From contig CBCXTV010000001.1 of assembly GCA_965178125.1 (NCBI GenBank), forward strand, positions 248,001-312,000: a stretch of DNA of 64,000 nt, in the 5' to 3' direction. The notes below the pieces were generated by a model, which searched no databases, was not told the DNA's origin, and saw only the letters and a list, made by a program, of their open reading frames with translations. The DNA is from Bilabrum cf. latius. Lineage: Eukaryota. The translations under genes and the position numbers were made by a program. Positions 1,086 through 35,848 of the stretch are shown here, one piece after another. Numbering within the stretch: the stretch's first letter is position 1; every line of letters begins with the position of its first letter.

Positions 1086-4074
1086 AGGCCCTAGAGTGGC
1101 CCTTCTCCGCTTCAATTCCTGTCCCAAATCCGATTCCCATTTCGAGACCGAAAAAGGTGACCCGGAAAACGACGGTACTCTCCGTCACTCCATCTGGCGG
1201 CGAAAATTGCCTCAGTTTCCGGTCCCCGATTCTGGGCCCAGGGACCCCCGAAATTCCCGATTCCGCGCAGTGCCGAAAGCTCGACATAAACCACAAACAC
1301 GACACACAACACAACACGATAGCGCCTCCCCACGCGCGGGATTGGGTCCTTCCGCTCGCTGCATGTGAGCTGCAGTGTGTTCTTGCCGGGAATGTCACTG
1401 GAAGTCGCGCTGCAGTCTGCTCAGGGCGCCTTATGACCATGAAGGCGTCTCAGCACCCGCGACGGCAAGAGGGGGCACGCACGACGTTGCGAAGCACCCG
1501 CCCTGGGTGAAGAAACTGCGTATCCACAGGAGTCACGTTCAGGTGCGCGAGAATTGGAAAGGCGGGGTAACTGGTGCAGAGGAGCTTGTTCGCAGCGCGG
1601 CTTCCACCAGCGCCGCTGACGGTAAGATGCATCGGTCTCGGTACATGAGTCGGCACGGTGTTGCGTGATTGACTTCACGATGCGGGAGTGTGCAGCCTTC
1701 CGCAGCGGGAGAATTGTATCTCCCCACGACCGCCGAAAAAAAAAAGAAGGCTATGCTGGACTCGTTCCAGGGAAGGCTATGCGATGAGTATCTCTAGGCG
1801 CTTTCCGGAAGACCCACCCACTACACGCTGGTCAGCCCTCCCAAGCGGGAGTGAACCGCGGATCCGCGGGCCCGTGAGCGCTGCTGCTACGATCATTTCT
1901 GCCCGTTTGACTCTCGCCCACTCTTGCCGTGACCAAAGACGCGCAGATCCTTATGACGCATGACACCTCGTCGAGGTGTCGAGACTGCCTCACATTCCCG
2001 TTACAAAGACCCACAGCACTGCGACAACGAAATCGGTCACGAAGAGAGCAAGAGGCCGCGCACCTGAGCATCACAAAAACCCCGAGAGACATAAACAACA
2101 CCGTCCCGTGAAGTCCCTGCGACGAGGGGATGCTAAGCGGCTCCCACGGCGGCTCCTCTGCGGGAAAAGCTGCCGCAGACCTCGAGATGGGATGCACATG
2201 ACTGCGAAGATTGCGGAACTCGTCCGAAGCCGGTCGCACGAGGGTCACAGCGAATGGAGGCATATCTATGAAATAGAGTCTGCGTGCAAAGCAGCATTCC
2301 AACGATCGTCCGCATTCTTCCGAGCAAATCCTTGGGAGCACACATCCTGCGGACGACATCTCTTTTCTATCCACCCCAGCGTACTCCCCGCACACACTTC
2401 TCGCGAATGATTGAGAATTCTGTGCGGCACATGTAATATCAGGCTACCATGATACGCGGAATGGCGTGCTATTGCTCGCACGTTCGTGCGCCCCCTTCCG
2501 AATGCGCTTACCACATCACTATGTTCGTCGGCAACCGTATACACCGTAGGGGTCTTCCCTCCGACACCAAGCGTACACGACTGGCCGTAATAGCGCAGCG
2601 TAGATGTTTCGGACGTCGCCCAGGACAAGTGTCGACGCCCGGTTCGTCACGATCACTACGTGTGCACTTCACTCACCGCCCTCCAGCCGCTAGACTTCTT
2701 TTGGAGCGCGACATCCTACGACGCGCTATGACACGTAGCCGTAAACCGCAGACGGCCTCGCGTTCACTGCTTGCAGCGCAAGAGCGTGAACAAGAACCGC
2801 CCGCGTGGCACACCTTCGCAGGCGCGGAAGACAAAAAGTTCCTTCTAAGCTTGTATTCGGGTCCGAAAGCCAAATTCCACTTCGGGGTCGAGAAGGGCGA
2901 CCCGGGAAATCACCGTACGCTCTGTGAATCCATTTCCCGGGGAAAGTCCCCGAGTTCCCGCTACCCGGTCCCAGGCCCAGCGACCCAGGAAAGTTCCCGT
3001 CCCCCCGCATGCGGAAACCTCCCACGAAGCACGCCCACCTCACGCTTCACACGCAAAAGTCCAGGAGTCAAATCCATTCCGGACCCAGCAGTTCACCCCC
3101 CGTGACGATTGGGAAAGGCTCTTGCACACACCTTCTCGTCCGAGCAGTCTATGGAGCACACACCTGTCTTCGTTGCCTTTTCCGGCCAAAAATGCAGGGA
3201 GTTCGAAGGGGAAGTAGCAAGCGCGGAAGACCGCTTTCGAAACGCAGGTGCTCAGGGAAAAACAACCAGAGCGTCCCTGATCCTCGGCAGAGCCGTCCAG
3301 GAGGGACGGGCACGGACGGGCATCGCAGATCTTGCAGCGCCACCATTCGCCGGGATGGGCGACCGGACGAGGGCGACCACAAGTACGTAGCGTGCGACGT
3401 CCGTCAGTCGCCATGTTGCGCTGATTCGCTTTCGCGGCACGACTTCCAGGGCCGGCCTTACTCACTCCTCGGAGTCCGCGTGTGGATTCTCCCCTGCGCA
3501 TGATCTGCCGCTCTAGATGCTACACAAAGATCCCGCTCGGATGACCCCCTCTGTGCATTCTGCAAGATTTTACGCGCCTCCATTCAATGCGCGAAGCATG
3601 CACCGCAGCACTCTGAGTCCGGTGACCACCTTCAATAGCGTGGGACAAATTCCGTCCGCGATGTGCATTCGGGCATGCTCCCCTTTCCGAGTCTCTGTGA
3701 CCCGTAGTGCGTCCGCGGCCAACGACTCAGGACTCCACGATGGTACGCACGAGTTGCATTCCTTGCACGAAGCGTGCGGAGAGAAAGCGATGCTCAGACA
3801 TCGAGGCGCTTGGAGGGTCTGCACGCGACATGCTTCGAGAGGCCATGCAAACATGCGAAACCAGAACTGAGGTTCCTCATCGTTCCTGCTGTCGAGCGCT
3901 CAATTGGGGCATCGGATCAGGACGAAGCTCGCGAAGAGAGGGCGCGGGTGTCCCCATCCAAAAATCCGCCGCCTTCAAGGCTCATGTTCCCGGATCCTGC
4001 ATTCGCGAGTTTCGGGAGCAGAAGTGCAAGATCGCCGCTGGACACACAGCGCATGCCATTTCCCGTCTCTGGAG

Positions 4075-6636
4075 ATGTCGGGCTTCCAGGCGCAATTCGG
4101 ACACCATCGCCAGGACCTCGGGAAGATGACATGTCTGCTGATCTGCAGGGAAGAGTCCCGCTTCGAGGAGTGGCGACAAAAAAAAGGGGCGCGAGAACTC
4201 CACGAGCACATGGGAGCGGTCCTTCGGCTCCCCAATCCAGTGTTTCCGCAGACCGACAGGGACCCAGATGGACGCGACATCGTCAAAGACCAGGCCCTCT
4301 TGGATATCTTCTCCGGCAAGATAACGGACTGGAGCAAATACAATCCGGCCACTGTTGGGGCGATCCAATCCCATCGAAACGCATGGCTGTGGGCTGAGAA
4401 CCACACGCCGACGGAATGGCTCATGGTTGTCGAAGATGATATCGAACCTCGCGAAGCATGCGTGGATCGGCTACTCGTAGTTCTTCACGCCATCGCGAAA
4501 AACCCCAAGGTGACGCAGATGGCCATGTTAGCGGGGTCAGAAGCACCGAGAATGGTCACCCTCCAGCGCGACAACTCCACCTCCATCCACAATTGCGAGC
4601 GCCTCTTGGACGTGCGGACCTATCCGGCGCACTGGGTAGACAACACATTTGTGGTCCCCTACCACGTCGGCATGGGCCTAAAGTGGTATCTCATCAGCCC
4701 GGAGGGGAGGAAGGCGCTCCTGAAGATGCGGATCCCGAACCGAAGCTTCGAACGCTGCGTCTGGCGCCGCCTCTTCGACACGTTCCAAGGGCCGGTATGG
4801 AAGTGGGGAGATTGCCTCCGCATGACATCTGTGCTGGCAGCCAGCCCGGTCCTCGCATCGACTCCCGAGAGCATGGACACGGAGTGGGGGGGCTCGGGAC
4901 GACGAAGTGCGGATGCAGGGCACAGTATGAAACCGTACATAATGGTCGACCCGAGTGAGGACTGGACTCTTGGCGAGCGATTAAACACATTGTCCGTCGT
5001 GATGTCCGTGTGCGCGGCCCTGAGTTGGGGGGTTGTCCTCGTCTGGGAAAAAACAGAGCGCGTGCCCATCTCCTACGAAGACTTGTGCGGTGTTCACGAG
5101 CACGCCGGCGAAACCAACACGTTCGTCCACCTCCTCCAGGACAAACGCGGCGGGTCGTATTCGTACTTCCTGAGGTACGGAGACATCCGCATCCACGTGG
5201 TGCAGCCGATGATGTGCATCCCCACCCTCGACAGAATGCTCGACATGGTAGCCCTGAAGAGGCCCAAGATGAACACCCTGCCTCCCTTGAAATGGCAGAC
5301 CGCTCGATGGATCCAAGTCAAGCAGAAGTGGATCGATAAACTCCACACGGAGATGCCGGGGGCCGAGCTGCCCTCATGGCTGGAGTGGCCACCCTCAACC
5401 CACGCGCTTGTCCTCTGCGACGACAGGGACTTGGCGGCGCACTGCCTCGAGGGGAGATGCCAAAAGGAGCAGCAGGAGTGGATGAACGACGGGAAGGACA
5501 ACAGCATCCAGCACTACATCCTTGAGGCAAAGCAAGCGCTGCAGAACGAGTTGGAAGACATCCTAAAGGGGGACAGCAGCTCACGCCTCGTCGTGATCCG
5601 CATGACAACCAAACTGCTGGGACAGGTCTGGGTGGACATGATGAAGCACCTCACGAAGCAGTTCGGGAAGCGCATCATAACGCCAACGTTCCTCCTCCCG
5701 AAAATGATCCCCAAAAGGAGGCACGACGAAAAGAACCCGAGTGATGATTGGATTACTTGGGGAGCATCCTTGGCGAAAACCGTGGGCCTCCTCACGCTCA
5801 TACCTCCGATGCAAGTGCACTATCCCATCATGAGCTGGACCGTGGCCTGGAACCACTTCATGTTTAAGGGCAGGAGTGCCACGGACACCGTGATCCCAGA
5901 CGTCATCCGAACTCTGTACGCTCCGCACAAGAGCAACAGGAAGCAGCTCCTCAAGAACGGCCCGCTGTGCCAGACGAGGCGCGCCGTGCTGGACTCGCCC
6001 GCACTGCGGGACATTGCGAACAACTACTCAAGGGCCAAGGACAAGACCTATAACCTCTTGAGTTATTCCAAATGGTTTGCCGAAGAAGCCATGTGGCACA
6101 TGATCAAGTACGCGGAAAGCACGCAGTGCATCGTCGACCCGTTCGTGAGCCGCCAGTGCCAAAAGGTCTTCGAGCACATCCCCTCGGACGACATCGGCCA
6201 TGCGGACGCCCGGCTCCGGTACAACCTTCAGGATGCCGACGACCGAGGTTACCGCTTCAACGCGGGGCATCTCTACACCGCGGTGCAGGGCATCAAAACG
6301 GTGAACATCGCATACAACAAGTGGCTCACCGAGCAGGCACAGAGTCATTCCGAATGGAGCTGGGGCAAAACGTTCATCAAGCTTGTGATCAACCAGTGGC
6401 GGCAGCAGCAGGGCAGTGAGCCGTATGACGTGGACGAGGAGGACTACGTGAGCCTTCCGCGGACCTTCCACGGGAATTCGTTGAAGCTCGCGAGGAGCGT
6501 AAGCCTCCAGGACACGAGATCCTGCTCCAGATCGTCCTCATCCTATTCCAGGTCGCCCTCCACCAACAGGACTGAGGCACAGCCTTCGAAGAGAGCGCGC
6601 CTGACCCCGGCACCCGGCGTAAAGCACGAGCCCTGA
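4075..6636 (+). CDS. Large protein with GT25-like glycosyltransferase domain and possible second (fucosyltransferase-like) GT motif
   Basis: Open frame 3904-6636, first ATG 4075. AIQSHRNAW...WLMVVEDD and YLISPEGRKALL resemble GT25 motifs (SH..W, LILEDD, Y.IS..GA..LL); LGERLNTL...WGVVLVW resembles GLGNRL fucosyltransferase-type motif; C-terminal SRSP and PSKRARL. Diverged paralogous fragments in the window conserve the protein sequence. Confidence 0.65.
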   Translation: MSGFQAQFGHHRQDLGKMTCLLICREESRFEEWRQKKGARELHEHMGAVLRLPNPVFPQTDRDPDGRDIVKDQALLDIFSGKITDWSKYNPATVGAIQSHRNAWLWAENHTPTEWLMVVEDDIEPREACVDRLLVVLHAIAKNPKVTQMAMLAGSEAPRMVTLQRDNSTSIHNCERLLDVRTYPAHWVDNTFVVPYHVGMGLKWYLISPEGRKALLKMRIPNRSFERCVWRRLFDTFQGPVWKWGDCLRMTSVLAASPVLASTPESMDTEWGGSGRRSADAGHSMKPYIMVDPSEDWTLGERLNTLSVVMSVCAALSWGVVLVWEKTERVPISYEDLCGVHEHAGETNTFVHLLQDKRGGSYSYFLRYGDIRIHVVQPMMCIPTLDRMLDMVALKRPKMNTLPPLKWQTARWIQVKQKWIDKLHTEMPGAELPSWLEWPPSTHALVLCDDRDLAAHCLEGRCQKEQQEWMNDGKDNSIQHYILEAKQALQNELEDILKGDSSSRLVVIRMTTKLLGQVWVDMMKHLTKQFGKRIITPTFLLPKMIPKRRHDEKNPSDDWITWGASLAKTVGLLTLIPPMQVHYPIMSWTVAWNHFMFKGRSATDTVIPDVIRTLYAPHKSNRKQLLKNGPLCQTRRAVLDSPALRDIANNYSRAKDKTYNLLSYSKWFAEEAMWHMIKYAESTQCIVDPFVSRQCQKVFEHIPSDDIGHADARLRYNLQDADDRGYRFNAGHLYTAVQGIKTVNIAYNKWLTEQAQSHSEWSWGKTFIKLVINQWRQQQGSEPYDVDEEDYVSLPRTFHGNSLKLARSVSLQDTRSCSRSSSSYSRSPSTNRTEAQPSKRARLTPAPGVKHEP

Positions 6637-7510
6637 CGACGAAATGCCGCAGAACAGCGCGTTGCGGGGAGACAAAGCTCCGCGGGCAACAGCAGAAGGC
6701 CGCCGAGCGCCGGAGTTGGAGGGTCACATAGTTCCATCGGTCCCATTCTCTCCGGAAGTCGCATAGCACGTAGAGATCCGCATGCTCTCGGTGCATGAAC
6801 GCTGGCAGCACGCAGTGCCAAAGTCGCAAAGCGCTTCAGAGTCACAAGTCCAGAAGTTCTTCTGCCAATGTGTGTCCTCTTCCCGCTCATGTGTGCATCC
6901 TCGGAGGAAGTCTGGAGATGACAGGACCCAGCACGCACCACATCAGAAGTCCTTTTTTAAAGCGGCATCGTCAGACAAAAATCTGGAACGCCCTTCCGCA
7001 AAAAAGAGTGCTGCCCACAGAAAAAAGGGAAACACCTGAGGCCCCAGAAGCCAAAGGGAGGACCGCGAAGGACGCAGTTTCGAGGTCACACTTTCCGGGA
7101 CCAGTTTTGAGCCCAAAAAGGGGTACACAAGAGGAAAACACGATGCGGGAGGCTTGAAATTGTCACCGAAAACGGGCCCAAAATTGGGACCCCTTTTTCG
7201 CAAATTTCGCAGCATCCAGACGACCCAGAAAGGCTTTCCCAGGCGCCGCCTCGAAGCTCACCTTCTCGCATGCAACCATGACGCAGCCCCACCTCCTCAT
7301 GCAGACGCGTCTGAGAGACCCCGCAGTGGAACTTCTCCCATTCTGCGCAGGAAGCACTTCAGTCTACAAGGACCCGCGCACTTCTTACCGCACCACCTCC
7401 ATGTGAAAGCACTTCTCGCGGAGTTTTTTTCGGGCCCAGGAATACAGCAACTGCCAGAAGCTTCGCACAGAAAAGCAGCCCACTCAGGAAGCAAACTCAC
7501 TGCACACCCC

Positions 7511-7981
7511 ATGGCGAGCGACGCAGAACCGGAGGACGCAATGCGGCTCGACTCCCCTAGAGATGCGGATGCAGCGGCGCCACCCGAAGCGACGGAGGCA
7601 GGATCACAGAAACCAGATCATGCGCAGCAGTTCTTCGAGGAGCCCTGCCCGAAAGACGGACACATGGAAGCGCCAGAGAAGACCGCCAAGACGGACGAAC
7701 CTGGCGACACACCCATGTTCGTCGACAAGTGGACGGCAGCGATCACACGCCTTACCGAGGAGCGCAAGGCTCTCAAGCTCGAGCAGCGGGCTAAAACGAA
7801 GGCCATCCGCAAAACCATCCGGCAGAAAAGGCGCACCATGAAGAACGCCAAAAAACTCACAGACGACGAGCTCGCCCAAATCGTGCTAGACAGGAAGATC
7901 TTGCAGTTGGTGCAAAAAGAAGAGATCGCAGCACGCAGCTCCGCCAACTCCTCAACGAGCCAGGCGAAGTCGACCTTGTGA
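7511..7981 (+). CDS. Hypothetical protein, acidic N-terminus and basic coiled-coil C-terminus
   Basis: ATG 7511 within ORF 7154-7981; helical K/R-rich segment AAITRLTEERKALKLEQRAKTKAIRKTIRQKRRTMKNAKKLTDDELAQIV. Confidence 0.6.
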   Translation: MASDAEPEDAMRLDSPRDADAAAPPEATEAGSQKPDHAQQFFEEPCPKDGHMEAPEKTAKTDEPGDTPMFVDKWTAAITRLTEERKALKLEQRAKTKAIRKTIRQKRRTMKNAKKLTDDELAQIVLDRKILQLVQKEEIAARSSANSSTSQAKSTL

Positions 7982-8340
7982 GAAGCGCTTCCCGTGTTCA
8001 GAGAACCGAGGATTACAGATAGACCCCGCGTCACAGAAGCCATCGCAAGAGGGCAGAGCGTCAAGTACAGCGCAGTCTTGACGGACACAGATAGCCCGAG
8101 CAGCACAAAGCAGCGGATGCGGCTGCCCAGCGGAGTCGCGCACTCGGACAGCATACACGGGACGTGCTGGCAGAAATCACTCAGTCCGCGAGCACCGTCG
8201 TCAAGAGCACGGGAGGGGCAGACTCGACATGCACAACTTTGAAAAACGGGAGGGCACGAAAGGAAGACAAATTTGGCATTAATCCTTGATTACCCCCGCC
8301 CCCCCGTAGAATCAGAGCGAGGAGATATGCTCGGAAGGTC

Positions 8341-8651
8341 CGGGGGGCAGTCGCAGAAAAGTGCACGCGAAAATAAGAGGAAAGGAGACCCCCCAAACCC
8401 ACGTAGTGCGACCCTCGGGGGTACCCTCTAAGGTACTAAGAATCCTTCCCCCGAAAATCGCACTACATCGGTCCCTGGCGTCGGGGAAAGCGGAAAAAAG
8501 GGGAGCACTACCGTGAAAAAATCCTGCATTTTACAGGAAAATCGGAGCACTACGTGTCAAAAACTGGGGGTTTTTGAGGTTTTTTTTCCAGAAAAACGGC
8601 ATTTTTTTATGTAAAAACCGCGCGAAACGAGCACTACCGAGCACTACATCG
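8341..8651. promoter_or_regulatory. Candidate replication origin: inverted repeat plus GAGCACTAC iteron-like repeats upstream of Rep
   Basis: GTAGTGCGA (8403-8411) / TCGCACTAC (8458-8466); GAGCACTAC at 8503, 8545, 8629, 8639; A/T runs; no canonical CRESS nonanucleotide seen. Confidence 0.5.
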
Positions 8652-9155
8652 CCTCCTCCAGTCGTGTTTCGCATTTTTTTCGCTGGCCGAAAATGTCTCC
8701 GAAGGCGCTGCCTCGAGGGGGGGTTCCGATGGCTGATTTTGGGCGTTCTGTTGTCGATTTCGCGTGCATTTCAGGTTGTCGGCGAGGCCTTTTTGGCGTA
8801 TGTCGCAGTTCGGATGCCCTCGAACGTCGTGTCTCATGTGGTATTCGCCGGTTTCTATGTTGGAGAAGGCGGTCGGTCGATCATCCTCTCTGGCAGGCTC
8901 CGAAGTGCGTTTGTGATCGTGCTAATTGCAACGCCATGCTTTCCTTCGTTGGCTTCGAGAATCCTTCCCTCGGAAGCGGTAGTACCTCGCCCAGGGCGGC
9001 ACGAGCTGCAGACTCAGCTGCCTCGGTGCTCATGTGTGTCCCGTGTCAGCAGTTTCGGTGTTACGAACAGCAAGGATTCTGGGCATTGCGTGTCGGAGGC
9101 AAGTGTTCTATCTTGAGGCATTCCGCGATTCGTCGAAGGATTATTTGCGCAAATA

Positions 9156-11441
9156 ATGTCGGCTCCGTTCAAGGGCGAAACGATGAGTTTGTCTGTTGCC
9201 GAGTCGCTGAAGTCCCGAGTCGCATCCTGCTCCTGGGATCCCGCGTGGGTTTCCGCGAGCTGCGTGCCGTGCGATGGCCTCCCCACAAGCCAGGAGTCAG
9301 AAGCGTCCACGACGGCGACCTCTGCTTTGTTAGGGGTGTCCGAGGCGTCCCCAACGTGCTCGTGTGGCCTCGGTGTCTCCAATTCGGTGGCTGCAGCGCG
9401 CGCGGCCGCTGTCCCGAGTTTTGGCTTTGACGATGCGGAGAACGACTTCGACGCCAGTCTCGACATGATTGAGGCCTCATGCGAGGTCGCATGCGAGGCA
9501 GAATGCGAGGGCGATCCGGGAGCCTGCTTGTTGTCCCACGGCAAGTCGAGCGGTCAGTGGCAGATCGGCGTAGTGGGTGAACGAGTCCTTTATGAGGGCC
9601 TCAGCGTTGAGGGCGACATTCCTGGCCGCGTTGCTGCCTCCGAAGCGCTCGCCGCGGGTGTCATCAATTTGGAACCCCCGTCAGAGGAAGTACTTTTGCC
9701 GGTGCAGCTTCTGCGGAGTAGTCAAGGTTACCGTGGGGTTCTGCCCATCGAGGATTCTGCGCCCGATGCGAGGGGGCGACCGCAGATGCTCATGCTCCCC
9801 GATTTCGTGCCCCGCGTGAAGAGGCGGCGTCTTCGGCAGAAGTGCGACCCTGCTGAGGGCGATGCAGCACCGAGTCTTGCGGCTCATCTCGGACCTCCGC
9901 CCGCGGCTCGTGCCGCGGCCGGAGCGTCTGGGCCGCAGCGCTCGACTGGAAGGCCTTCGACTCGTCCTATTGATAGTGTCATCTATCGTCTCCTGCGGGT
10001 TTTCCCTGACGATTTCAAGTTGGCGTTTCCGGCGTCGGTGTCACACCAGCGGAAGCGGTGCCTCATCAGGGAGGCGCTTCGCAATGTACCCGGTGACCGC
10101 ATGTGCATCTTGAAAGACTGGGCTGCGGGGGCGGAGGACACTCCTTGCCAGCTTCGTTTCGAGGAGCTCTTCCCGGAGCTTGCGCGGCAGCGGGACGAAG
10201 TTGTGAGGAATCCGGGATCGCACTCAGTGCCCGTGGGCGAGATTGTGCCTGCGTCCGACAAGAACACGAGGCGGGGAAGGGCCGTGATGCTTACCTTTCA
10301 CGGTCGCTGGGGTGTCGAAAAGGAGCCTGTGCGCGACATCATGTCGGCATCCGTGGCAAGGGGCGTCCTGAGGCGATTGGTTCTCGCGTCTCCGTTCTAT
10401 GTGGAGCTTTGGGCCACCTTCAAGGCATGGGCGCAGGACATCGCGCGGCGGATGATGTGGCCTCAGCTGTCCATGAAAATGGAGCTCTCCCTGCACCGCA
10501 AGCACGCCGCAAACTTGGTGCACTTCCACGTATGCATGACGGATTCCGAGAAGTCGCATCGTTGTCGCGTGGCGGAGGATTTCATGTGGGCCGGCAGCAG
10601 GCCGAATGTCGTCTACGGCTCCGGGCGGTCAGCGAAGGCGCAGGAACGTGGCGCGTCGGAGTTACACTATTATTGTCAAGCTCCCAAAGTCGGTGCGCTG
10701 CTTTGCGCCACGAACTACCGAGCCGGACGCGATTTCGTCGTCAATGGTAAGTTCGTGCACGCGTTGTTCGCACGCTTCAAAATGGATCCGGACGTCGCGA
10801 GAAGGGAACTCGTGGCGTATCGGTGTCGGGACGCCGAGAACTTAGTGCGCGCCATCGACTTCCACATACAGAATACCGCGGAGAGGAGAGAGGTGTGCGC
10901 GCAGGCCGCGGTGCACGTAGTGACGAAGCTCCGCCCCTTTAAGGTGGTGCCCGAAGTCGAGAAGTGGCGCGAGAGCTATCGTCAGGAGTGGTTCGCGCAC
11001 ATGCGCTTCAAGTTCCTTGTCTTGGTGGGGGACTCCCGGTTCGGGAAGACAGTGTACGCGCGGAATCTCTTCGGGAGCGAAAGGACTCTTGTTGTGAACT
11101 GTCAGGGCAGTGTGGAACCTCCGCTCCGTGGCTTCGATCGAAGTCGGCATGTGGCCATTGTGTTCGACGAGGCAAATGCCCTGTGGGTCGTCAACAACAA
11201 ACAGGTCTTTCAGGCTGGCCTTGACCCCTCCCTGCTCGGCCAGAGCAAGACGAACAGCCTCGCATACTCTGTGTGGCTCCACGGTATCGCCCTGATCATC
11301 TGCACGAATTCGTGGGGCTCTGACGTGACGGAGTCGGCGGACCGCGATTGGCTTGACAACAACTGCACGAAAGTGGAGGTGAAAGATCGGCTCTACTTCG
11401 ACGAGGACTTGTTGTCTCTCACGGATGTGCAGAAGAGCTGA
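9156..11441 (+). CDS. rep: CRESS-DNA-virus-like replication initiator Rep (HUH endonuclease + SF3 helicase)
   Basis: Motif I MLTFH, motif II VHFHVC (HUH), motif III YYCQAPK, Walker A GDSRFGKT (cf. geminivirus GDSRTGKT), Walker B IVFDE, motif C IICTN, C-terminal DWLDNNC...LY as in gemini/genomovirus Reps; ~370-aa N-terminal extension with KRRRLRQK. Confidence 0.9.
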   Translation: MSAPFKGETMSLSVAESLKSRVASCSWDPAWVSASCVPCDGLPTSQESEASTTATSALLGVSEASPTCSCGLGVSNSVAAARAAAVPSFGFDDAENDFDASLDMIEASCEVACEAECEGDPGACLLSHGKSSGQWQIGVVGERVLYEGLSVEGDIPGRVAASEALAAGVINLEPPSEEVLLPVQLLRSSQGYRGVLPIEDSAPDARGRPQMLMLPDFVPRVKRRRLRQKCDPAEGDAAPSLAAHLGPPPAARAAAGASGPQRSTGRPSTRPIDSVIYRLLRVFPDDFKLAFPASVSHQRKRCLIREALRNVPGDRMCILKDWAAGAEDTPCQLRFEELFPELARQRDEVVRNPGSHSVPVGEIVPASDKNTRRGRAVMLTFHGRWGVEKEPVRDIMSASVARGVLRRLVLASPFYVELWATFKAWAQDIARRMMWPQLSMKMELSLHRKHAANLVHFHVCMTDSEKSHRCRVAEDFMWAGSRPNVVYGSGRSAKAQERGASELHYYCQAPKVGALLCATNYRAGRDFVVNGKFVHALFARFKMDPDVARRELVAYRCRDAENLVRAIDFHIQNTAERREVCAQAAVHVVTKLRPFKVVPEVEKWRESYRQEWFAHMRFKFLVLVGDSRFGKTVYARNLFGSERTLVVNCQGSVEPPLRGFDRSRHVAIVFDEANALWVVNNKQVFQAGLDPSLLGQSKTNSLAYSVWLHGIALIICTNSWGSDVTESADRDWLDNNCTKVEVKDRLYFDEDLLSLTDVQKS

Positions 11442-11845
11442 CGCCGGCCGCTGAGGTTTTCAGTCCGGTTCACACGAGCGCCGGAGCCGCAGCGGCAGCC
11501 GCTTCGGTGCTCCTGAAGGTCTAATGTCCTCAATGCGTTTCGTGTGCAAAAAGGATGTGGTTTCTACATGGGGGCATTCCGCAAGTTTCATGTGGTCCGT
11601 CGCGTTCGTCCGGGGGAGTGCTTGCCTAGTATTGGGAGCTTGCCTGACACACACACACGTGGCACCCAGCCTGATGGGTTGCAAGTGTGTGTGTGTCTCC
11701 GCAGTGCCGCGGTTGGGACCCGGCGGGTCGTTTGCTTTTACGTCGCCGCGTCGCGCGCCGACGAGACATTTCTTGGTCTCAGAAGCCTCTGCTTCCGGTA
11801 GGCGCGCCGTGTACACTCGCGGGCCGAAGGTGGGTGCGTTGCTTG

Positions 11846-12538
11846 ATGGCCTACGTCGGTATCGCCGATGCACCGTATGTGCCCGTGGTTGCCGCGTCGA
11901 CCTCCGAGCACGCCCCGGAGGGCGAGGTGGAGATGATGCTTGCGCCTCTTGCCGGAGATGTCGGTTTCAAGCGGCCTCGCGTGTTTCCTCCCGGTTCGCG
12001 ACTTCTTCCTAAGTCGCCGGCCCATCCGGCGGTGCTCATAACAGCGCTCGGCAGTGAGGCACCCCAGGACACACAGTGCGTCGTTTGGTCGGACTCTAAG
12101 GCTTTCGACCTCGCGGAGTTTGTATGCTCTTCCTGCGGCTGCAATCGTGTCATGGCGGACCTGAATCATCGTATGCGTGATCGTCTCGTACGTCGCGTGC
12201 AGCGCACGCTTTATGCCGATGATTCTCCGTGCGGCAGGGGTGCGATTTCGTGTCGTGCTTGTCGCGAGAAGGCGCGCGACGCGGCGCCGAAGACGTCGAT
12301 TATGAACGCGGCGAACAAGAAGAAGATCTCGGGAACTCTTCGCATGCAGTTGGATCTCATTGTAGAGACCGGGGAGCGGAAGGGTCAGCGTTGTACTGCG
12401 GAGAAAATTCTGACATTGGGAACGATGAAGCAGCACAGGGTTTTCGAGAGGGACCTTTACGATGAGGCATGGCGCGGGCTTGTTCGTCTGTCTGGACGCG
12501 AGGCTTGGAGCGATGACGACTCGTGGTCTCCGCGTTGA
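11846..12538 (+). CDS. Hypothetical protein with CxxC pairs
   Basis: ATG 11846 within ORF 11687-12538; CSSCGC and CRAC motifs; intact in both full copies. Confidence 0.5.
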   Translation: MAYVGIADAPYVPVVAASTSEHAPEGEVEMMLAPLAGDVGFKRPRVFPPGSRLLPKSPAHPAVLITALGSEAPQDTQCVVWSDSKAFDLAEFVCSSCGCNRVMADLNHRMRDRLVRRVQRTLYADDSPCGRGAISCRACREKARDAAPKTSIMNAANKKKISGTLRMQLDLIVETGERKGQRCTAEKILTLGTMKQHRVFERDLYDEAWRGLVRLSGREAWSDDDSWSPR

Positions 12539-12744
12539 GCTTGCGTGACGGTTTTCCCTCTTAACCTGGCCTCTTGCGTGGCGCTGCTTCCGCGTGTGGC
12601 CTGAGCGTGCGACCTAAGCGTTCGGCCTGCTGTCGCGTGTGACCTGAGCGAACGGGCGCTCGACAGTATCCCGCGTTTGTTGCTTCTGGGGTTCAAGAAA
12701 CTTGTACTTTTTGGGCTGTACGGTGGTCAGTGGTGCACGGTTCG

Positions 12745-12872
12745 TTCGCAGCCTCCGCGTTGTTGGAAAGCTATGGTGGAGCATGGTTCTTTTCGCAGCC
12801 TCCGCGTTGTGATCAAGCTACGGTGGAGCATGGTTCGTGAGCATGGTTCTTTTCGCAGCCTCCGCGTTGTTG
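12745..12872. repeat. Short imperfect tandem repeat
   Basis: TTCGCAGCCTCCGCGTTGT three times, interspersed with GAGCATGGTTC; also at ~39942-40069. Confidence 0.85.
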
Positions 12873-13372
12873 ACACGTGAAAGCTACGCGAACGTGACCA
12901 CACAATAGGCCATACCCCAGGTGAAATCCGGACTCGGACATCCAGACGAAACGGCATCATGCACACTGTTGAACACACAAATGACACTGAGCTCCACCGT
13001 AACGTAACTTTCCATCACCACCTGGTTTATTTTCTCCGCGATGGCAGCTTAGCGGTGACGCTGTGTCTTCGGGCATGAAGGGGCAAATCTTTGATTTTTT
13101 GGGCCCTGTTTCGGTCACCGAAAAGTCGTGTGATTTCTGGCGCGCAGGAGGAGTGACGCAAGGTATTTCTGAACCGTTTTCCGGACGCTTTCCGGGCCTC
13201 CCATGTGACCGCTTTTTGCGTACCGAAACACGTTCCGCGCGTGAGGAGCAGATGCGGATCTCCGCGGGGTCCTAGTTGTGTCCTTTTTCGGGGGACGAAA
13301 TCGGGCGCACTTGTCGTGCCGATTCGTGGTCGTCTCTGAGACCGGCTGCGAGTCGGGAAAGGTGCCCGGGAG

Positions 13373-16288: not shown

Positions 16289-16862
16289 TCCTCGGCAGCT
16301 CCTGCATCGGAGCCTCCTGTCGAGATTCGATCGCGCAACGTCGTTCCTTACATTGCTTGCCGTCGCATGTGCCGGGCGGTGGTGGGTGTGCGTGTTCGCC
16401 GAAAGTTCCCGGCCTCGTCTTCCTCAGGAGAGCTCCTCGACCCGAAATTGGCAGCTCAGCGCTGCCGTGGCCGATACAGTACCCGTGCATGGCCAGTTGG
16501 CAGCTACGCGCTGCCGTTGCCAATGTCGTCCGCACGAGAGCAGAGTGGCAGCTCAGCGCAGGCGAGAAACCGCGCTCGCAATGCTGCGAGGTGTATTCAA
16601 TGCTGTGCACGTGTCTATCCCGCTCCCTGGTTTTGTCTCGCTTGCGCCAGTGTGACCGCAGCAGAGCGGGTGCTTCCCGTGCGTCTTCAGCTTTGAGCAC
16701 TCCTCCAGCGACAGGAAGGCATTCGCTTGCTCTCGCTCCCCGCCTGCGTCCTATCCCTCCCGGGTATCTTCAGAGGCCACAGGCAGTGCGAAGCTTGGCA
16801 GCGGGTCCGTCCGCGTCGTTTCGGCTGTGAGCGATCTTCTGCCCGGTTCCTCACGCGTCATA

Positions 16863-18464
16863 ATGTCCTCTGCTTCGGTGCCGGATCAGCTCGCACGGAT
16901 CAGTAAGGAGCTGAAGTGTCTCAGAGACGCGAGACAACGGGCGCGCAATGGGCTGCGCCATCCGTGGTTGCGCGCCATGGAGGCACAGGTCGCTGAGGTT
17001 ATTCGTCATCACCCCGGCGGTGGCGAGGCAGCTCTTCGAACCTATGTCTCTCGTCAGTTGCAGAGTCGACAGGTTTCCACGCGGACGGCTTCGCAGGAGG
17101 AGTTTCAAAGGCAGGTCGATGAGGAGGTCGCGCTCACCATGAGGCGCCCAGCTGAGGCGTGGCAGCGAAATCCTCTTCGCTCATGTCATCGAGAGTCCGT
17201 GGCACGCGCAGAGACCTTTCTCGCCGAGGCTTCTGTCGTTGCTTGGATCGACCATGTGAACGAGCAGCGTGGGTGTGCTCCAACTGGGAACATGGTTTTC
17301 GCCATGCTTGCGAGGATGGGCGTTCGCGCGGGGAAGGACTCGGCTCGACGGCAGTGGCTCCTGCGCTTCCGTCGTCGTTGGCGGCTTCGGCATGGCCGAT
17401 TGAAGAAGCAGCCCCCGGTAACACTCGATTACGTCAGACTCGCGTGTCGTGTCTTCTATCAGTGGATTGAATTCGCAGAAGCGCGAGTGCCCCCCAACCG
17501 CCGCCTCGTCTTTGTGAATTTCGATGAGTCCAGCGTGCCCTTTGCCTTTCCGGGAATGCGCGGGTACATCGCACCGAGGTCAGGAACGGAGCCCGCTTCG
17601 CTTGGTTCGCGCACGGAGCGCCTCGCCTCGAATAGCAATCGAGGATCGTACACCTTTCTGGGTTTTATTAGCGACTGCCCGGAAATCCAGCGACGACTCC
17701 CGCGTATACTCATCGGGAAGCACACGCGGCTGAGCAAGCGCTTGATGCGTGGGGCGCCGAACCAAATGGTGGACGGAATGGAAGTCTGGGCCCGAGAGAG
17801 CTCGTGGGTGACGCAGTCCCTCATGTTCGACATTCTGCGTCGGCTTTTCGCTTCTTGGATGGACATTCAGCATGAGATCTATCCAATAGTGATACTTGAC
17901 TGCGCGCCCCAACACATTTCCACTGAGATTGTGAACTTCGCACACGGCCTTGGCATGGATCTCGTGTTTATTCCTGGTCGACTCACCTTCCTGCTTCAGC
18001 CGTTGGACGTTCTCGTCTTTCAGCTTCTTAAGCGCGACCTTCGGGAGACGTGGATGCAGGAGCGCTCGCGTCATGAAGCGGGTCATGTCGATGTCTCTTG
18101 CCATCTCAGGGTTGTCGCTGAGTGCACGAAGAGAGTGCTCTCGTCTGGCTCGTGGCAAGGCGCTTTCGATATGACAGGCATTACCAGCGGCAGGCGCCGC
18201 TTGCATTCGACCCTACGGCGCTTGTTTGAGTGTGACATGGAGGACATCTCCAGCGATGCTCCGTCTGTCGACCAGCTCCGCTTCATCAGCAGTCCGCAGC
18301 AGCCTCTCCCGCACGATGCGCTCATCAACAGGGCCCCAGTCGCGTCCGGACACGCGGTCGACGGAGGCGTCCACGGTGGTAACGCTCGCCGCGTGCCTCG
18401 TGGCCGCAGACTAAACGGATGGACCCCCCGCGATCGCGCTCACCCCTCGGCGGCCATGCCGTGA
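16863..18464 (+). CDS. pogo/Tigger-type (Tc1/mariner superfamily) DD35D transposase with CENP-B-like HTH
   Basis: VNFDES (first D), ILDCAPQH (second D), FIPGRLTFLLQPLD..VF..LK (third D, 35 residues after the second); WI...RG...QWLLRFRRRW resembles the CENP-B HTH. ORF opens at GTG 16827, first ATG 16863. Confidence 0.9.
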   Translation: MSSASVPDQLARISKELKCLRDARQRARNGLRHPWLRAMEAQVAEVIRHHPGGGEAALRTYVSRQLQSRQVSTRTASQEEFQRQVDEEVALTMRRPAEAWQRNPLRSCHRESVARAETFLAEASVVAWIDHVNEQRGCAPTGNMVFAMLARMGVRAGKDSARRQWLLRFRRRWRLRHGRLKKQPPVTLDYVRLACRVFYQWIEFAEARVPPNRRLVFVNFDESSVPFAFPGMRGYIAPRSGTEPASLGSRTERLASNSNRGSYTFLGFISDCPEIQRRLPRILIGKHTRLSKRLMRGAPNQMVDGMEVWARESSWVTQSLMFDILRRLFASWMDIQHEIYPIVILDCAPQHISTEIVNFAHGLGMDLVFIPGRLTFLLQPLDVLVFQLLKRDLRETWMQERSRHEAGHVDVSCHLRVVAECTKRVLSSGSWQGAFDMTGITSGRRRLHSTLRRLFECDMEDISSDAPSVDQLRFISSPQQPLPHDALINRAPVASGHAVDGGVHGGNARRVPRGRRLNGWTPRDRAHPSAAMP

Positions 18465-19936: not shown

Positions 19937-22703
19937 GTCGCTCCCTAACGTCTTCAGTGGCAGGTTCGGAAAAGACACCTCCGTAGGCACGCGACAAGTC
20001 CCGGTGAAGCGGGCTCGCACCGCGCTGGGCGGGAGATCGTGAGCGCTTAGAGGACCGGAGCTTTCGGGCGGGTGCGTGTCTCGACAAACTCCCTCTTGAC
20101 CACGGGCGGGGAACGTGTAGGGCGGAAGCTAAAGACACCGTAAGTAGCGGAGGGCTAACATTCCGTCCTTCGGTGAGAGCCAAAAGTTCGAGTCTGCGAG
20201 AGACTATTATACGAAGTTCTCCCCTCCTCATACGTGCGCATAGCCTCCTCACGCGGTAGCGCGAGCGCGGGACCCGGACCTGTCCCTGATGGGCGTGAAT
20301 CTGAACCCGGCGTACTCTCCTAGTCTGTCACTTCCACGACCTTGTTGTCGCGGAACCACTTGCACGGAGAGGAACCTGTCGTTCAAGCGGGTGCAGCCGG
20401 ACGCGCAGGTGTAGTGCATCGCCTTGCATATGTGCACGGCCAAGTAGATGCCGGAACCGTAGAGGTATCACACTTCCCGCGGAGCTTGGGTGGGTCTTTC
20501 GCTGCTGTCGTCTGCTCCAGAAGGTTTGCGCCAAAAACCGGAAAACTTCTAAGACAGAGGTGGGATGCCAGGAGCTCACGGTCCTGCCGGATTGGGGAGG
20601 TCCATGCCCACGCGAGCCGGGTACGCGTCCAAATCAACGCACAGAGCGGGAGCTGAGGGCGCCAAGGACGCTCACTGTCAGGCACACACAACGCGCACAG
20701 AATTCGTCATTTCGCGTTCAAAGCCTGCCAACGACGTGGCGCTTGGCGAAATGTGGTGGGTGGCGAAGATGTGGTACTTCGCCGTGCCTTTCTCTATGAC
20801 GGCCAAGCGTGCACTCGCCATCGCGCTCGGACGCCACAGGAAGAGATCCCAGCTCGCAGCTCCGCCGCCTCATCCAGGAGTAAGGCGAAGTCGAATCGTG
20901 AATAGCGCTTCGCACCTTCACAGAGCCGAGGATCACAGATAGGCCCCGCCTCACAGAACCCAGCGCCATAGGGCAGAGCGTGAAGTACCTGGCCGCTTGG
21001 CTTGGCCGGACCCCCGCCCGCCCTCCGCCGGCAGCTCCTCCCGTCCGTCCCTATGGAGGCAGATCCGCGTACCCATGCTGCGGCGGGATCCTGACACAAT
21101 CCGCTCCTCTTAGTGTGTGGCCGTGGGGCATGAGTGGAGCAGCATCGGGCCCTCACCAGCCGTGGAACGGAAGCAGCTCTCCGTGCGGCAGCTGTGCGAT
21201 GCACAGACCTCGTCCCAAAGATACGGATCCATTTTGCCGTCTTCCCGCGCATACTGCATCGCTCTGCAAAACTGCATTGCGCAGTGGATCCCCGAGCGTC
21301 GACTGCCAATAGCAGGCGGCCTCGCAAGGCCTTCATGGACGCAGGATTTGGGCTTCTTCATCGTAAATTTGGGGTCTGCTCAGCGCGCGAAAATTCCAAC
21401 GCTTCAAAATGATCCGGACGTCGCGAGAAGGGAACTCGTTGCTTGCTCACCTGTGCGGAGGGGTTGGATGCCCGATGTGCTAAAGAGAGGATACTGTCCG
21501 TCGGCGTTCTCTCTTCACCTTGTGCGGAAGGGTTGGGTGCCTGATTTCAGACAGAGAAGGTCTCGTCCGTTGGGAGCGCTTAGGAATACTTCCGGATGGG
21601 GCGTCCAGACGCGGTCCAGGACCTCCAGCTCGTCGGGGTCAATGTCGCCCGCGCCGTCCGTGCCTTTGACGCCTCTGGATCGATGATGCCCACGATCTTT
21701 GTCATCTCGGACGACACACGTCCCAGCTGCTCTTTGGTAGTGCATTACCTCATTGACCCCGAAGCGTTGAATATTTAATGAAGACCCTTCGGAAGCTGGC
21801 GAAGTTTGTCAGCTTGTCGGAGCGCAGCCTGGGTCCTTGTCAACAAACATGGAGGGTTTCGGGGCGGATTTCCAGCGTTCCGCCTTGATATCGAGTGCAC
21901 CTCGAGGTCGGGATCGAAGCGGGGCGGGCGGTTCGTCATCCTCTGTGATACGCTTAGGAGGCGCCGACTTGATGCCCACCTTGTCCCCCAATCACTCCAG
22001 ACGTAACTGGGGAACTCTTCCCGTCGTGGGCCGGGTACGCCTCCGAATCCCACGCGAGCCGTTCCCCACGGCGCACCGATAAGCGCCGCTGCAAGCGTAC
22101 CAAGAGGGGCGTACCAAGAGGTGCTTCCTTCGCTCGGCAGTGTGGCACTTCAAGCAGTAGAATGTGCCACTCCCAGCACGTAGGTGGAGTTTGCGAGCTG
22201 CCGGCCGACATGCTCGTGTGGTGACCTCCGGCGCACCGATAAGTGCCGCTGCAAGCGCACCAATACTACTTCGCTTGGGAGCGAGGCACTTTAAGCAATG
22301 CAGTGCGCCGGTTTTCGTGCACGCCCAGTCGCGCGGACGCCGCAGGTGGCTTGGCCGTAGGATAGAATTAGTGGCGGGTCGGTTTTGCATGTCTTCCCTC
22401 TCCTCTTGATATGGTACACAAAGGCAAGAGCCTGACGATGCAGACGGAACTCCTGGATTTCACCGCCACATTCCTAGTCAAGACAGCCCTCGACTAAACA
22501 GACGCCGAGTTATCTTGAGCAGCATCCCACGACGCAGTGATGTGGACGGCAAGGGTGATGCCATGCTTTCCGGGCCTCCCATGTGACCGCTTTTTGCGTA
22601 CCGAAACACTTTCCGGGGTCGACGCCCCGGCGGAACACGCCGGCGCGGCGGCAAGCGTCGATGTTGCGGGCGGCCCAGCCATGAGGTACATGATCAAGTA
22701 CAC

Positions 22704-26585: not shown

Positions 26586-27098
26586 CAGATGACCACGGTG
26601 ATGGGTGGCAGCATGTCATAGGCGCGCCGTCGGAAGCTTCCCCTTCGAGTGCTGCCTAAAACTGAGAAACCTGGAGATCCTAGCATCGTATGGAGGCAAG
26701 AGGTAACACCTTGGGGTCCGTTCTCCGCTTCAATTCCTGTCCCAAATCCGATTCCCATTTCGAGACCGAAAAAGGTGACCCGGAAAACGACGGTACTTAT
26801 TTCTGAACCGTTTTCCGGACGCTTTCCGGGTCTCCCATGTGACCGCTTTTTGCGTACCGAAACACGTTCCGCGCGTGAGGAGCAGATGCGGATCTCCGCG
26901 GGGTCCTATTTGTGTCTTTTTTCGGGGACGAAATCGGGCGCACTTCTCGTGCCGATTTGTGGTCGTCTCTGAAACCGGCTGCGAGTCGGGAAAGGTGCCC
27001 GAGATGCTTGTGTCCTTGGCTTCGTATTTCTCCGCATATTCTTCAAACGCGGGCGGCAGTGGCTCCTGCGCGGGAGCTTCCCGAGTGGGTCCGTCGTG

Positions 27099-27295: not shown

Positions 27296-27379
27296 AGCAG
27301 ACAACGCATTTGTGGTCCCCCTCCACGTCGGCATGGGCTTGAAGTGGTACCTCAGGAGGATTTCACTTGCGCCGGCCCC

Positions 27380-33832: not shown

Positions 33833-34706
33833 CGACGAAATGCCGCAGAACAGCGCGTTGCGGGGAGACAAAGCTCCGCGGGCAACAGCAGAAGGCCGCC
33901 GAGCGCCGGAGTTGGAGGGTCACATAGTTCCATCGGTCCCATTCTCTCCGGAAGTCGCATAGCACGTAGAGATCCGCATGCTCTCGGTGCATGAACGCTG
34001 GCAGCACGCAGTGCCAAAGTCGCAAAGCGCTTCAGAGTCACAAGTCCAGAAGTTCTTCTGCCAATGTGTGTCCTCTTCCCGCTCATGTGTGCATCCTCGG
34101 AGGAAGTCTGGAGATGACAGGACCCAGCACGCACCACATCAGAAGTCCTTTTTTAAAGCGGCATCGTCAGACAAAAATCTGGAACGCCCTTCCGCAAAAA
34201 AGAGTGCTGCCCACAGAAAAAAGGGAAACACCTGAGGCCCCAGAAGCCAAAGGGAGGACCGCGAAGGACGCAGTTTCGAGGTCACACTTTCCGGGACCAG
34301 TTTTGAGCCCAAAAAGGGGTACACAAGAGGAAAACACGATGCGGGAGGCTTGAAATTGTCACCGAAAACGGGCCCAAAATTGGGACCCCTTTTTCGCAAA
34401 TTTCGCAGCATCCAGACGACCCAGAAAGGCTTTCCCAGGCGCCGCCTCGAAGCTCACCTTCTCGCATGCAACCATGACGCAGCCCCACCTCCTCATGCAG
34501 ACGCGTCTGAGAGACCCCGCAGTGGAACTTCTCCCATTCTGCGCAGGAAGCACTTCAGTCTACAAGGACCCGCGCACTTCTTACCGCACCACCTCCATGT
34601 GAAAGCACTTCTCGCGGAGTTTTTTTCGGGCCCAGGAATACAGCAACTGCCAGAAGCTTCGCACAGAAAAGCAGCCCACTCAGGAAGCAAACTCACTGCA
34701 CACCCC

Positions 34707-35177
34707 ATGGCGAGCGACGCAGAACCGGAGGACGCAATGCGGCTCGACTCCCCTAGAGATGCGGATGCAGCGGCGCCACCCGAAGCGACGGAGGCAGGAT
34801 CACAGAAACCAGATCATGCGCAGCAGTTCTTCGAGGAGCCCTGCCCGAAAGACGGACACATGGAAGCGCTAGAGAAGACCGCCAAGACGGACGAACCTGG
34901 CGACACACCCTTGTTCGTCGACAAGTGGACGGCAGCGATCACACGCCTTACCGAGGAGCGCAAGGCTCTCAAGCTCGAGCAGCGGGCTAAAACGAAGGCC
35001 ATCCGCAAAACCATCCGGCAGAAAAGGCGCACCATGAAGAACGCCAAAAAACTCACAGACGACGAGCTCGCCCAAATCGTGCTAGACAGGAAGATCTTGC
35101 AGTTGGTGCAAAAAGAAGAGATCGCAGCACGCAGCTCCGCCAACTCCTCAACGAGCCAGGCGAAGTCGACCTTGTGA
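34707..35177 (+). CDS. Basic coiled-coil hypothetical protein, copy 2
   Basis: Near-identical to 7511-7981. Confidence 0.6.
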   Translation: MASDAEPEDAMRLDSPRDADAAAPPEATEAGSQKPDHAQQFFEEPCPKDGHMEALEKTAKTDEPGDTPLFVDKWTAAITRLTEERKALKLEQRAKTKAIRKTIRQKRRTMKNAKKLTDDELAQIVLDRKILQLVQKEEIAARSSANSSTSQAKSTL

Positions 35178-35537
35178 GAAGCGCTTCCCGTGTTCAGAGA
35201 ACCGAGGATTACAGATAGACCCCGCGTCACAGAAGCCATCGCAAGAGGGCAGAGCGTCAAGTACAGCGCAGTCTTGACGGACACAGATAGCCCGAGCAGC
35301 ACAAAGCAGCGGATGCGGCTGCCCAGCGGAGTCGCGCACTCGGACAGCATACACGGGACGTGCTGGCAGAAATCACTCAGTCCGCGAGCACCGTCGTCAA
35401 GAGCACGGGAGGGGCAGACTCGACATGCACAACTTTGAAAAACGGGAGGGGCACGAAAGGAAGACAAATTTGGCATTAATCCTTGATTACCCCCGCCCCC
35501 CCGTAGAATCAGAGCGAGGAGATATGCTCGGAAGGTC

Positions 35538-35848
35538 CGGGGGGCAGTCGCAGAAAAGTGCACGCGAAAATAAGAGGAAAGGAGACCCCCCAAACCCACG
35601 TAGTGCGATCCTGGGTGGTACCCTCTAAGGTACTAAGAATCCTTCCCCCGAAAATCGCACTACATCGGTCCCTGGCGTCGGGGAAAGCGGAAAAAAGGGG
35701 AGCACTACCGTGAAAAAATCCTGCATTTTACAGGAAAATCGGAGCACTACGTGTCAAAAACTGGGGGTTTTTGAGGTTTTTTTTCCAGAAAAACGGCATT
35801 TTTTTATGTAAAAACCGCGCGAAACGAGCACTACCGAGCACTACATCG
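35538..35848. promoter_or_regulatory. Candidate origin with iterons, copy 2
   Basis: GTAGTGCGAT at 35600 ... ATCGCACTAC; same iteron-like repeats. Confidence 0.5.

Follow-up and report, generated by a model that had tools for sequence, protein, structure and literature searches.

A 12-kb block of DNA encoding a virus-like replication protein (Rep) and a probable glycosyltransferase (GT) is present twice in a 64,000-nucleotide stretch of the genome of Bilabrum cf. latius (GenBank assembly GCA_965178125.1, contig CBCXTV010000001.1, forward-strand positions 248,001 to 312,000), and the same stretch contains copies of the site that do not carry the block. What kind of element is this module, and how did it come to occupy this position? 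The whole stretch, referred to below as the window, had been described in an initial annotation made from the letters alone, in which the module was read as an element inserted with duplication of a TA dinucleotide and possibly mobilised by a neighbouring pogo transposase. Comparison of the occupied and unoccupied sites provides good support for a TA-duplicating insertion bounded by terminal inverted repeats (TIRs) at this locus. That the module is a non-autonomous cargo element of the Tc1/mariner/pogo type is held with less confidence, but we consider it the probable explanation. The relevant sites are the following, with positions counted from the first letter of the window:

1178..13163, plus strand: module copy 1, 11,986 bp, with its limits set by the alignment to the empty paralog
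1176..1177: TA to the left of copy 1, from the target duplication
13164..13165: TA to the right of copy 1, from the target duplication
28372..40362, plus strand: module copy 2 including both TAs; the module proper is 28374-40360, and all three of its frames are open
54191..54202: unoccupied site ACGG-TA-TTTCTG in unit 3, with a lone TA at 54195-54196
26794..26799: TACTTA scar, footprint copy A, made of TA, the first 2 nt of the left end and TA, in an older 335-bp paralog at 26720-27055
53102..53107: TACTTA scar, footprint copy B, in the duplicated spacer

All of the strings and coordinates reported for these sites in the initial annotation were correct when checked against the sequence. The filled allele of copy 1 reads ACGG-TA-CTCTCCGTCACTCC...GGAGTGACGCAAGG-TA-TTTCTG, and the empty allele string at 54191-54202 is ACGGTATTTCTG. 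To the left of the TA, 78 bp were found to be 100% identical across all five sites in the site alignments. Homology on the right extends for about 260 bp in footprint copy A, where identity with the main copies is about 96%, and for about 95 bp in copy B, where it ends at 53199; the flanks of the five sites align without ambiguity. Both module copies have a TA on either side and the unoccupied paralog has one, as expected of a target duplication, and the direct repeat at the module junctions extends to the 4-bp sequence GGTA.

The breakpoints defined in this way coincide with a pair of inverted repeats:

1178..1239, plus strand: left terminal inverted repeat, imperfect, about 62 nt, with the core CGTCACTCC at 1183-1191
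13102..13163, minus strand: right terminal inverted repeat, with the core at 13150-13158 on the minus strand

Read inward from the tips in register 0, the two module ends match at 11 of 14 and at 14 of 20 positions, and the exact 9-nt core sits 5 nt from each tip. The chance levels for the 11/14 match, the 14/20 match and the shared 9-nt core are 1.15e-4, 7e-5 and 6e-5, respectively (200,000 random position pairs in the window). When the 62-nt ends were aligned with gaps, the score was 17 as compared with -9.4 +/- 4.7 for random pairs, none of which scored as high in 5000 trials. About 40 of the 62 positions agree in this alignment, which bears out the earlier description of the ends as about two-thirds identical. 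The core is confined to the four module ends (4 matches in the window, 0.78 expected). Similarly, 16-mers from the ends were found with up to 3 mismatches only at these four places, and 4 matches were obtained in none of 100 shuffles. No further copies of either 200-bp module end were detected in the window. The module ends are real inverted repeats, beyond what chance would produce (P ~1e-4). Moreover, the core is equally far from both tips only when the element is defined as what lies between the two TAs, which supports the reading of the TAs as a target duplication.

The two footprint sites carry a 4-bp gain, in which a TA is followed by CT, the first two bases of the left end, and by a second TA. 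Tc1 is described in PMC12632400 as leaving TATGTA or TACATA scars, also with a 4-bp gain, in 78% of somatic excisions, and the TA + 2 nt + TA footprint proposed in the initial annotation agrees in form with the usual Tc1 scar described there. The spacer segments containing the scars (52723-53199 and 26415-26891) are 99.8% identical, and both scars therefore record one event. Both filled junctions follow exactly from a TA-duplicating insertion into the empty sequence. If TACTTA is taken as the ancestral target instead, a TA-duplicating insertion at either of its TAs fails to give the filled junctions. This derivability sets the order as empty, then filled, then scar. The scar allele derives from the filled allele or else from the empty one by an unrelated 4-bp gain. 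Of all copies of the site, the scar paralog has diverged furthest, so that the module was either at the TA before an older duplication or entered paralogous sites repeatedly; in either history, at least two events are needed at the same dinucleotide.

The relationship between the filled and empty sites depends on the architecture of the window, which is a tandem segmental duplication in which 1-22921 matches 27196-50128 at 99.67% identity. In unit 3, 53200-54196 is joined directly to 54193-63962 without the module. Since both filled copies lie inside one 27.2-kb duplication, they represent one insertion that was copied and not two. The module copies are 99.8% identical, and the 24 substitutions and 3 indels between them are evenly spread. 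Across the right flank (13164-22900), 45 of the 52 variable columns join units 2 and 3 against unit 1, 5 isolate unit 3 and 2 isolate unit 2, corresponding to 7 mismatches between units 2 and 3, 38 between units 1 and 2, and 41 between units 1 and 3. The left flank has 12 columns that isolate unit 3 and 1 that isolates unit 1, and the informative sites nearest to the junction are 199 bp to its left and 514 bp to its right. The three units are recombinant mosaics. What the initial annotation called an empty allele is thus a real single-TA paralog, but it is not simply a pre-insertion site, since the units are mosaic. Survival of an unoccupied paralog could account for the empty unit, as could precise post-excision loss via the TA or deletion between GGTA repeats. 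A second indel, only 1 kb away from the empty site, also distinguishes units 2 and 3: a 490-bp segment (26892-27381) found in spacer 1 between the scar paralog and a set of 394-bp repeats is absent from spacer 2 (53199/53200).

Unit and module pieces, with many deletions, make up a patchwork in each of the two spacers (22921-27382 and 50128-53200). The module pieces in them correspond to 4278-4802, 4991-5115, 6087-6219 (several times), 10166-10199, 10475-10620 (several times) and 11280-11331, at 82-99% identity. Short module-like pieces are also present in the flanks, where 19740-19876 resembles 8342-8474, 20840-20988 resembles 7919-8068 and 30-159 resembles 4564-4693. With fragments of module relatives at 81-99% identity across both spacers and both flanks, the neighbourhood appears to be a graveyard of such relatives, pointing to a family history that extends beyond this locus.

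The target itself is capable of forming a hairpin. At the unoccupied site, the arms CCGGAAAACG (54181-54190) and CGTTTTCCGG (54206-54215) make a perfect 10-bp stem, and the insertion TA lies within the 15-nt loop; at copy 1 the arms are split around the module (1161-1170 and 13175-13184). Perfect 10-bp-stem hairpins with 3-20-nt loops are rare, with 7 occurrences in the 27.2-kb unit that reduce to 3 different sequences; the scar copy of the target site is among these. The folding energy of the target hairpin is modest (z -1.97), and 9 of 200 shuffles were equally stable. The hairpin may reflect a target preference, or it may be a nick site for Rep. A search of the window for the canonical CRESS nonanucleotide gave no match with fewer than two mismatches; 35 two-mismatch matches were found as compared with 24.7 expected, none of them at the junction.

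Only three frames in the module have the codon-position GC pattern of coding sequence, and all three are open in both copies:

9156..11441, plus strand: Rep gene, 761 amino acids (aa), with a low-complexity N-terminal half and with the HUH endonuclease and SF3 helicase encoded from 10272; copy 2 at 36354-38639
4126..6636, plus strand: GT gene, 836 aa, with a probable N-terminal GT25-like (GT-A fold) domain, to which the assignment is limited, and a DXD-like VVEDD; copy 2 at 31322-33832
7040..7978, plus strand: possible third gene, a 313-codon open frame with a basic, coiled-coil-like C-terminus and no Pfam match

The Rep carries the motifs MLTF, HFH and YYCQAPK of an HUH endonuclease and the motifs GDSRFGKT, IVFDE and ICTN of an SF3 helicase. 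Its catalytic motifs are intact in both module copies, and H98, H100, Y148, K153 and GKT are invariant across 27 Rep sequences. Fifty relatives with up to 42% identity were found by word search, none of them with a Pfam domain, and an exhaustive search of Rep cluster representatives returned 1364 at E <=1e-3, 896 at <=1e-10 and 213 at <=1e-30. Many of these proteins are 600-735 aa in length and, like the module Rep, have the Rep part at the C-terminal end. The module Rep itself matched no Pfam family; PF23343 was matched weakly by 4 of 27 homologs (best E 0.0017). Searches of PDB sequences with the Rep alone and with the 27-sequence profile gave nothing significant. However, an AlphaFold model built from the 27 sequences (pLDDT 90.8) matched the folds of AAV2 Rep68 (E 2.4e-8), vientovirus Rep, papillomavirus E1, SV40 large T antigen, B19 NS1 and TYLCV Rep, as well as predicted Reps of CRESS-DNA viruses (E 2e-15 to 1e-10). 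Its atlas neighbours are Rep clusters of the Cressdnaviricota (0.97). Motifs, predicted fold and atlas neighbours all confirm the viral-type Rep of the initial annotation: as modelled, the protein has the combination of HUH endonuclease and SF3 helicase known from CRESS-DNA viruses, and the family to which it belongs is large and unnamed.

A few other features of the Rep and its surroundings were recorded. The sole Rep relative in the prokaryote genome collection (L001 626-1678, 31% identity) lies on a 1,859-bp contig of a proteobacterial metagenome-assembled genome, which is probably a binned viral or eukaryotic fragment. A hairpin with 23-nt (CA)n/(TG)n arms is located at 11646-11697, 200 bp past the Rep stop codon, and a nonanucleotide-like word with two mismatches (11627-11635) is found 11 nt upstream of it, outside its loop.

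None of the 94 frames of at least 70 aa in 1100-13300 reached a Pfam cut-off, with just 5 noise-level matches (E 0.015-0.044), and capsid, polymerase, integrase and DDE families were all missing from this set. The GT gene has a GC content of 0.77 at third codon positions (GC3). Among its 8 homologs, the GT25 family (PF01755) was detected below threshold in 2 (E 0.0053 and 0.043; cut-off 24 bits), and a search of PDB sequences with the GT profile gave nothing. A low-confidence model (pLDDT 53.7) matched the folds of COLGALT1, mimivirus R655 and a GT25 galactosyltransferase (E 3.5e-4 to 4.5e-3), and the atlas neighbours are GT25/GT11 clusters of the Nucleocytoviricota (0.90). This support is weak but concordant, and a GT25-like N-terminal domain in the 836-aa protein is probable. 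The GT label of the initial annotation can be kept to that extent, with the qualification that the query itself has no Pfam match. A variant of the GT (P0054) is encoded on another record of 25,927 bp and differs at 18 of 836 residues; the two copies in the window differ at 3.

The transposase proposed as the mobiliser of the module is encoded in its right flank, in which a second feature is also of interest:

16827..18464, plus strand: pogo-type DDE_1 transposase gene outside the module, intact, DD35D; also at 44028-45665 and 57862-59499
20313..20335, plus strand: possible relic of a left-type terminus, TA-CTCTCC, a 6-nt insert and GTCACTTCC, in all three units (also at 47514 and 61348); suggestive only

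The position of the pogo transposase outside the module was confirmed. The gene lies 3.5 kb from the module, is intact in all three units and is the only DDE transposase found in the window. Its frame matches PF03184 with E 2.2e-11 and 44 bits (cut-off 22). The catalytic triad is formed by the D of NFDES, D358 and D394, with 35 residues between the last two; all 6 aligned homologs (27-83% identity) retain these two, and the first D (NFDE) is conserved in each of the 5 homologs whose sequence reaches it. No Pfam helix-turn-helix of the CENP-B/psq type was found at the N-terminus in the 545- and 602-aa frames, where a divergent domain is possible. Word search identified only 6 relatives of the protein, and its own cluster is represented on a 25,927-bp record. 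Because the P0054 variant of the GT and the pogo-type cluster are both on a 25,927-bp record, the two genes are probably linked there as well. In keeping with the lack of a DDE domain in the module, a tblastn search there with the pogo protein gave nothing better than E 7.4. Nothing in the window ties the transposase gene to the module ends, and no inverted repeat in the window convincingly brackets the pogo-type open reading frame (ORF). The possible relic terminus at 20313 faces away from this ORF. Its anchored alignment, at P = 3e-4 per position, falls short of significance once the whole window is considered, and the terminus may come from an older relative of the module.

Several repeats and frames elsewhere in the window deserve mention. 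The segment shared by 8342-8474 and 19740-19876, about 135 bp long and about 90% identical, holds an imperfect hairpin with 25-nt arms and has no Rfam match. The 394-bp tandem repeat, with 2.3 copies and 53-54-bp sub-repeats, occupies 181-1084 (also 27376-28280 and 53200-54103); it stops about 90 bp to the left of the insertion site and holds most of the differences between unit 3 and units 1 and 2. An array of a 72-bp tandem repeat in 3-4 copies (22703-22989 and 23264-23488) lies within a 499-bp tandem duplication (22762-23760) and is derived from a fragment of the GT gene (about 6113-6188), such that a piece of cargo has been amplified in the spacer. The right-flank frames 13340-14662 and 18383-19480 have coding-type GC3; their proteins are rich in cysteine, with zinc-finger-like CxxC motifs, and match no Pfam family. 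Partial duplicates of the frame 13340-14662, at 92-98% identity, occur in both spacers, the one in spacer 1 being nearly full length and the one in spacer 2 shorter. Rfam and tRNA scans of the window were empty, and the dinoflagellate spliced-leader motif was absent from it.

How are these observations best explained? In the account that we favor, the module would be a class II cut-and-paste element that targets TA and has lost its own DDE transposase or never had one. As the module lacks such an enzyme, it must be moved in trans, and the pogo-type gene is the obvious candidate mobiliser because it is the only DDE transposase in the window; its action on the module is at this point pure conjecture. 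The cargo would consist of a CRESS-DNA-virus-like Rep, a probable GT25-like glycosyltransferase and perhaps one more gene, and the Rep would most simply be part of that cargo. Insertion of the element at a TA, in the loop of a sequence able to form a hairpin, and duplication of that TA are demonstrated by the sequence, as is the later copying of the filled site by segmental duplication. At an older paralog, the form of the scar suggests excision of the element with a 2-nt stagger, followed by rejoining of the break to give TA-CT-TA. As for unit 3, recombination would have brought an empty paralog beside the filled units, or the module would have been lost precisely through the TA or GGTA repeat.

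A number of observations weigh against this account. At the very tips, only 2 of the outermost 5 positions are the same in both ends, and so poor a match there is unusual for active Tc1/mariner elements. The transposon reading of the initial annotation is upheld by the TA duplication, the inverted ends at the breakpoints, the empty paralog and the scar, but not by an independent insertion: the filled copies share identical flanks, and no second insertion is present in the window. The mosaic relationships indicate that recombination among the units has occurred, and such recombination could move or remove the module without a transposase. The caveat raised earlier about GGTA microhomology also holds, as a deletion through these 4 bp would yield the same empty allele. 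No TA-flanked inverted repeats were found around the pogo-type ORF, with none of 5100 TA pairs (50 x 102) reaching 14/20, and no likeness of its surroundings to the module ends was detected. Within the three module frames, 10 of the 13 substitutions between the copies are non-synonymous, so that there is no sign of purifying selection on the cargo since the duplication. Finally, 12 kb is large for the Tc1/mariner/pogo superfamily, and the efficiency of Sleeping Beauty (SB) is said to drop with cargo length (PMC2874221).

In a rival account, the Rep would itself be responsible for movement. Here, HUH-mediated single-strand integration and excision would operate as in IS200/IS605-type and rolling-circle elements, with nicks made after GGTA in the target-hairpin loop and at the right end, release of a circle and resealing of the donor, and the apparent TA duplication would be part of a 4-nt cleavage motif. 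Such a mechanism would make sense of a module Rep with all of its catalytic motifs in both copies, of a direct repeat that is GGTA rather than TA alone, of an insertion point in the loop of a rare perfect hairpin and of an empty allele that looks perfectly resealed. Single-strand HUH transposons have both ends on one strand, however, and symmetric inverted ends are not expected of them; the module ends would therefore go unexplained, and the TA-CT-TA scar would lack a natural origin. The hairpin is, in addition, thermodynamically modest and has no canonical nonanucleotide at the junction, and the extra GG match has a chance of about 1 in 16. We regard movement by the Rep as unlikely. Similarly doubtful is a combination of the two modes, in which the module would be a virus-transposon chimera: a CRESS-like Rep replicon with Tc1/mariner/pogo-type ends that is moved by a host or helper DDE transposase into TA sites, preferably hairpin-forming ones, and whose Rep amplifies the excised 12-kb episome.

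Two further possibilities do without active transposition, and we give each a low probability. In one, the 12 kb would be ordinary content of the duplicated unit that was lost from unit 3 by GGTA microhomology deletion or unequal recombination, TACTTA would be an unrelated indel and the inverted ends would be coincidental. The region is indeed highly rearranged, with patchwork spacers and mosaic units, the 4-bp microhomology lies at the breakpoints, and unit 3 also lacks the 490 bp just upstream (26892-27381). On the other hand, this requires three independent coincidences, namely inverted repeats in register (P ~1e-4), a TA on both sides and a 4-bp indel repeating TA+CT at the same dinucleotide. 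In the other, a linear, endogenous element of viral or plasmid-like nature, bearing inverted terminal repeats and following parvovirus-, bidnavirus- or polinton-like logic, would have been integrated once by host repair and would now be immobile, with the TA representing microhomology. A viral-type Rep, a GT whose nearest feature-space neighbours are giant-virus proteins, terminal inverted repeats and the lack of an internal integrase or transposase would suit such an origin. It fits poorly with the lack of capsid, polymerase and integrase families in the 94 frames and with the presence of just 2-3 coding-looking frames in 12 kb, and the scar allele, a sign of clean removal at the same TA, is not accounted for by a one-off integration.

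If the favored account of a Tc1/mariner/pogo-type cargo element is correct, how does the module compare with known systems? It shares TA duplication, terminal inverted repeats and a scar of the Tc1 form with Tc1/mariner/pogo (ITm) elements and their non-autonomous derivatives, and, like miniature inverted-repeat transposable elements (MITEs), it would rely on a transposase supplied in trans. Unlike these elements, it is 12 kb long with a large protein-coding cargo and is not a deletion derivative of a transposase gene, its terminal 5 nt are poorly matched, and no partner with matching ends was found in the window. Its Rep has the order of domains seen in the Rep proteins that CRESS-DNA viruses and pCRESS plasmids encode, with an HUH endonuclease followed by an SF3 helicase, but differs from them in a 370-aa N-terminal extension, an unusual motif III spacing (Y-x4-K) and the lack of any Pfam Rep family at threshold. 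The module is not a CRESS-DNA virus genome, being 12 kb, chromosomal and linear-ended, with no capsid family and no canonical origin nonanucleotide. Nor is it a Helitron. Helitron ends have the form 5'-TC...CTRR-3' and insert between A and T without duplication; those of the module are CT...GG with a duplicated TA, and its helicase folds as SF3. The RepHel architecture of Helitrons, in which a Y2 Rep is fused to a Pif1-type SF1B helicase, is covered together with the Replitrons in PMC10288648 (Craig 2023). Replitrons are described there as eukaryotic elements with a Y1 Rep distantly related to CRESS-DNA Reps and with no helicase, with ends formed by short direct repeats and, in other families, no target duplication. 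Membership of the module is ruled out by its SF3 helicase and its inverted ends, and its TA duplication is a further difference.

A TIR transposon that carries a Rep does have a precedent in the truffle. The geminivirus-like transposon of Tuber melanosporum, the closest published case that we found, is reported by Liu et al. 2011 (PMC3198968) to have a Rep-like ORF, two transposase ORFs, 37-bp inverted repeats and 42 copies, with an interrupted Rep and no obvious target duplication. Like the module, it is a DNA transposon with terminal inverted repeats and a CRESS/geminivirus-type Rep. The module differs in having no internal transposase, a clear TA duplication, an intact Rep, an extra glycosyltransferase and two linked copies in the window. 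Teratorn, a 180-kb piggyBac element fused to a herpesvirus, likewise joins a cut-and-paste transposon backbone to viral genes, and it encodes its own transposase (PMC10175614). Should the chimera described above prove true, the module would be a small-Rep analogue of Teratorn joining replication of the single-stranded DNA (ssDNA) type to cut-and-paste integration. No description of a TA-flanked inverted-repeat element with an SF3-helicase Rep and a glycosyltransferase was found in the literature searched, which comprised listings and abstracts; such descriptions may exist.

With the filled, unoccupied and scar states of one site present in a single window, the locus comes close to a natural excision assay. 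The module is a clean candidate for a large, cargo-carrying TA/TIR transposon and a testable case of viral replication genes combining with DDE transposition. If Reps of this kind commonly travel in this manner, some of what is taken as 'endogenous ssDNA virus' signal in eukaryotic genomes would represent transposon cargo and not viral integration.

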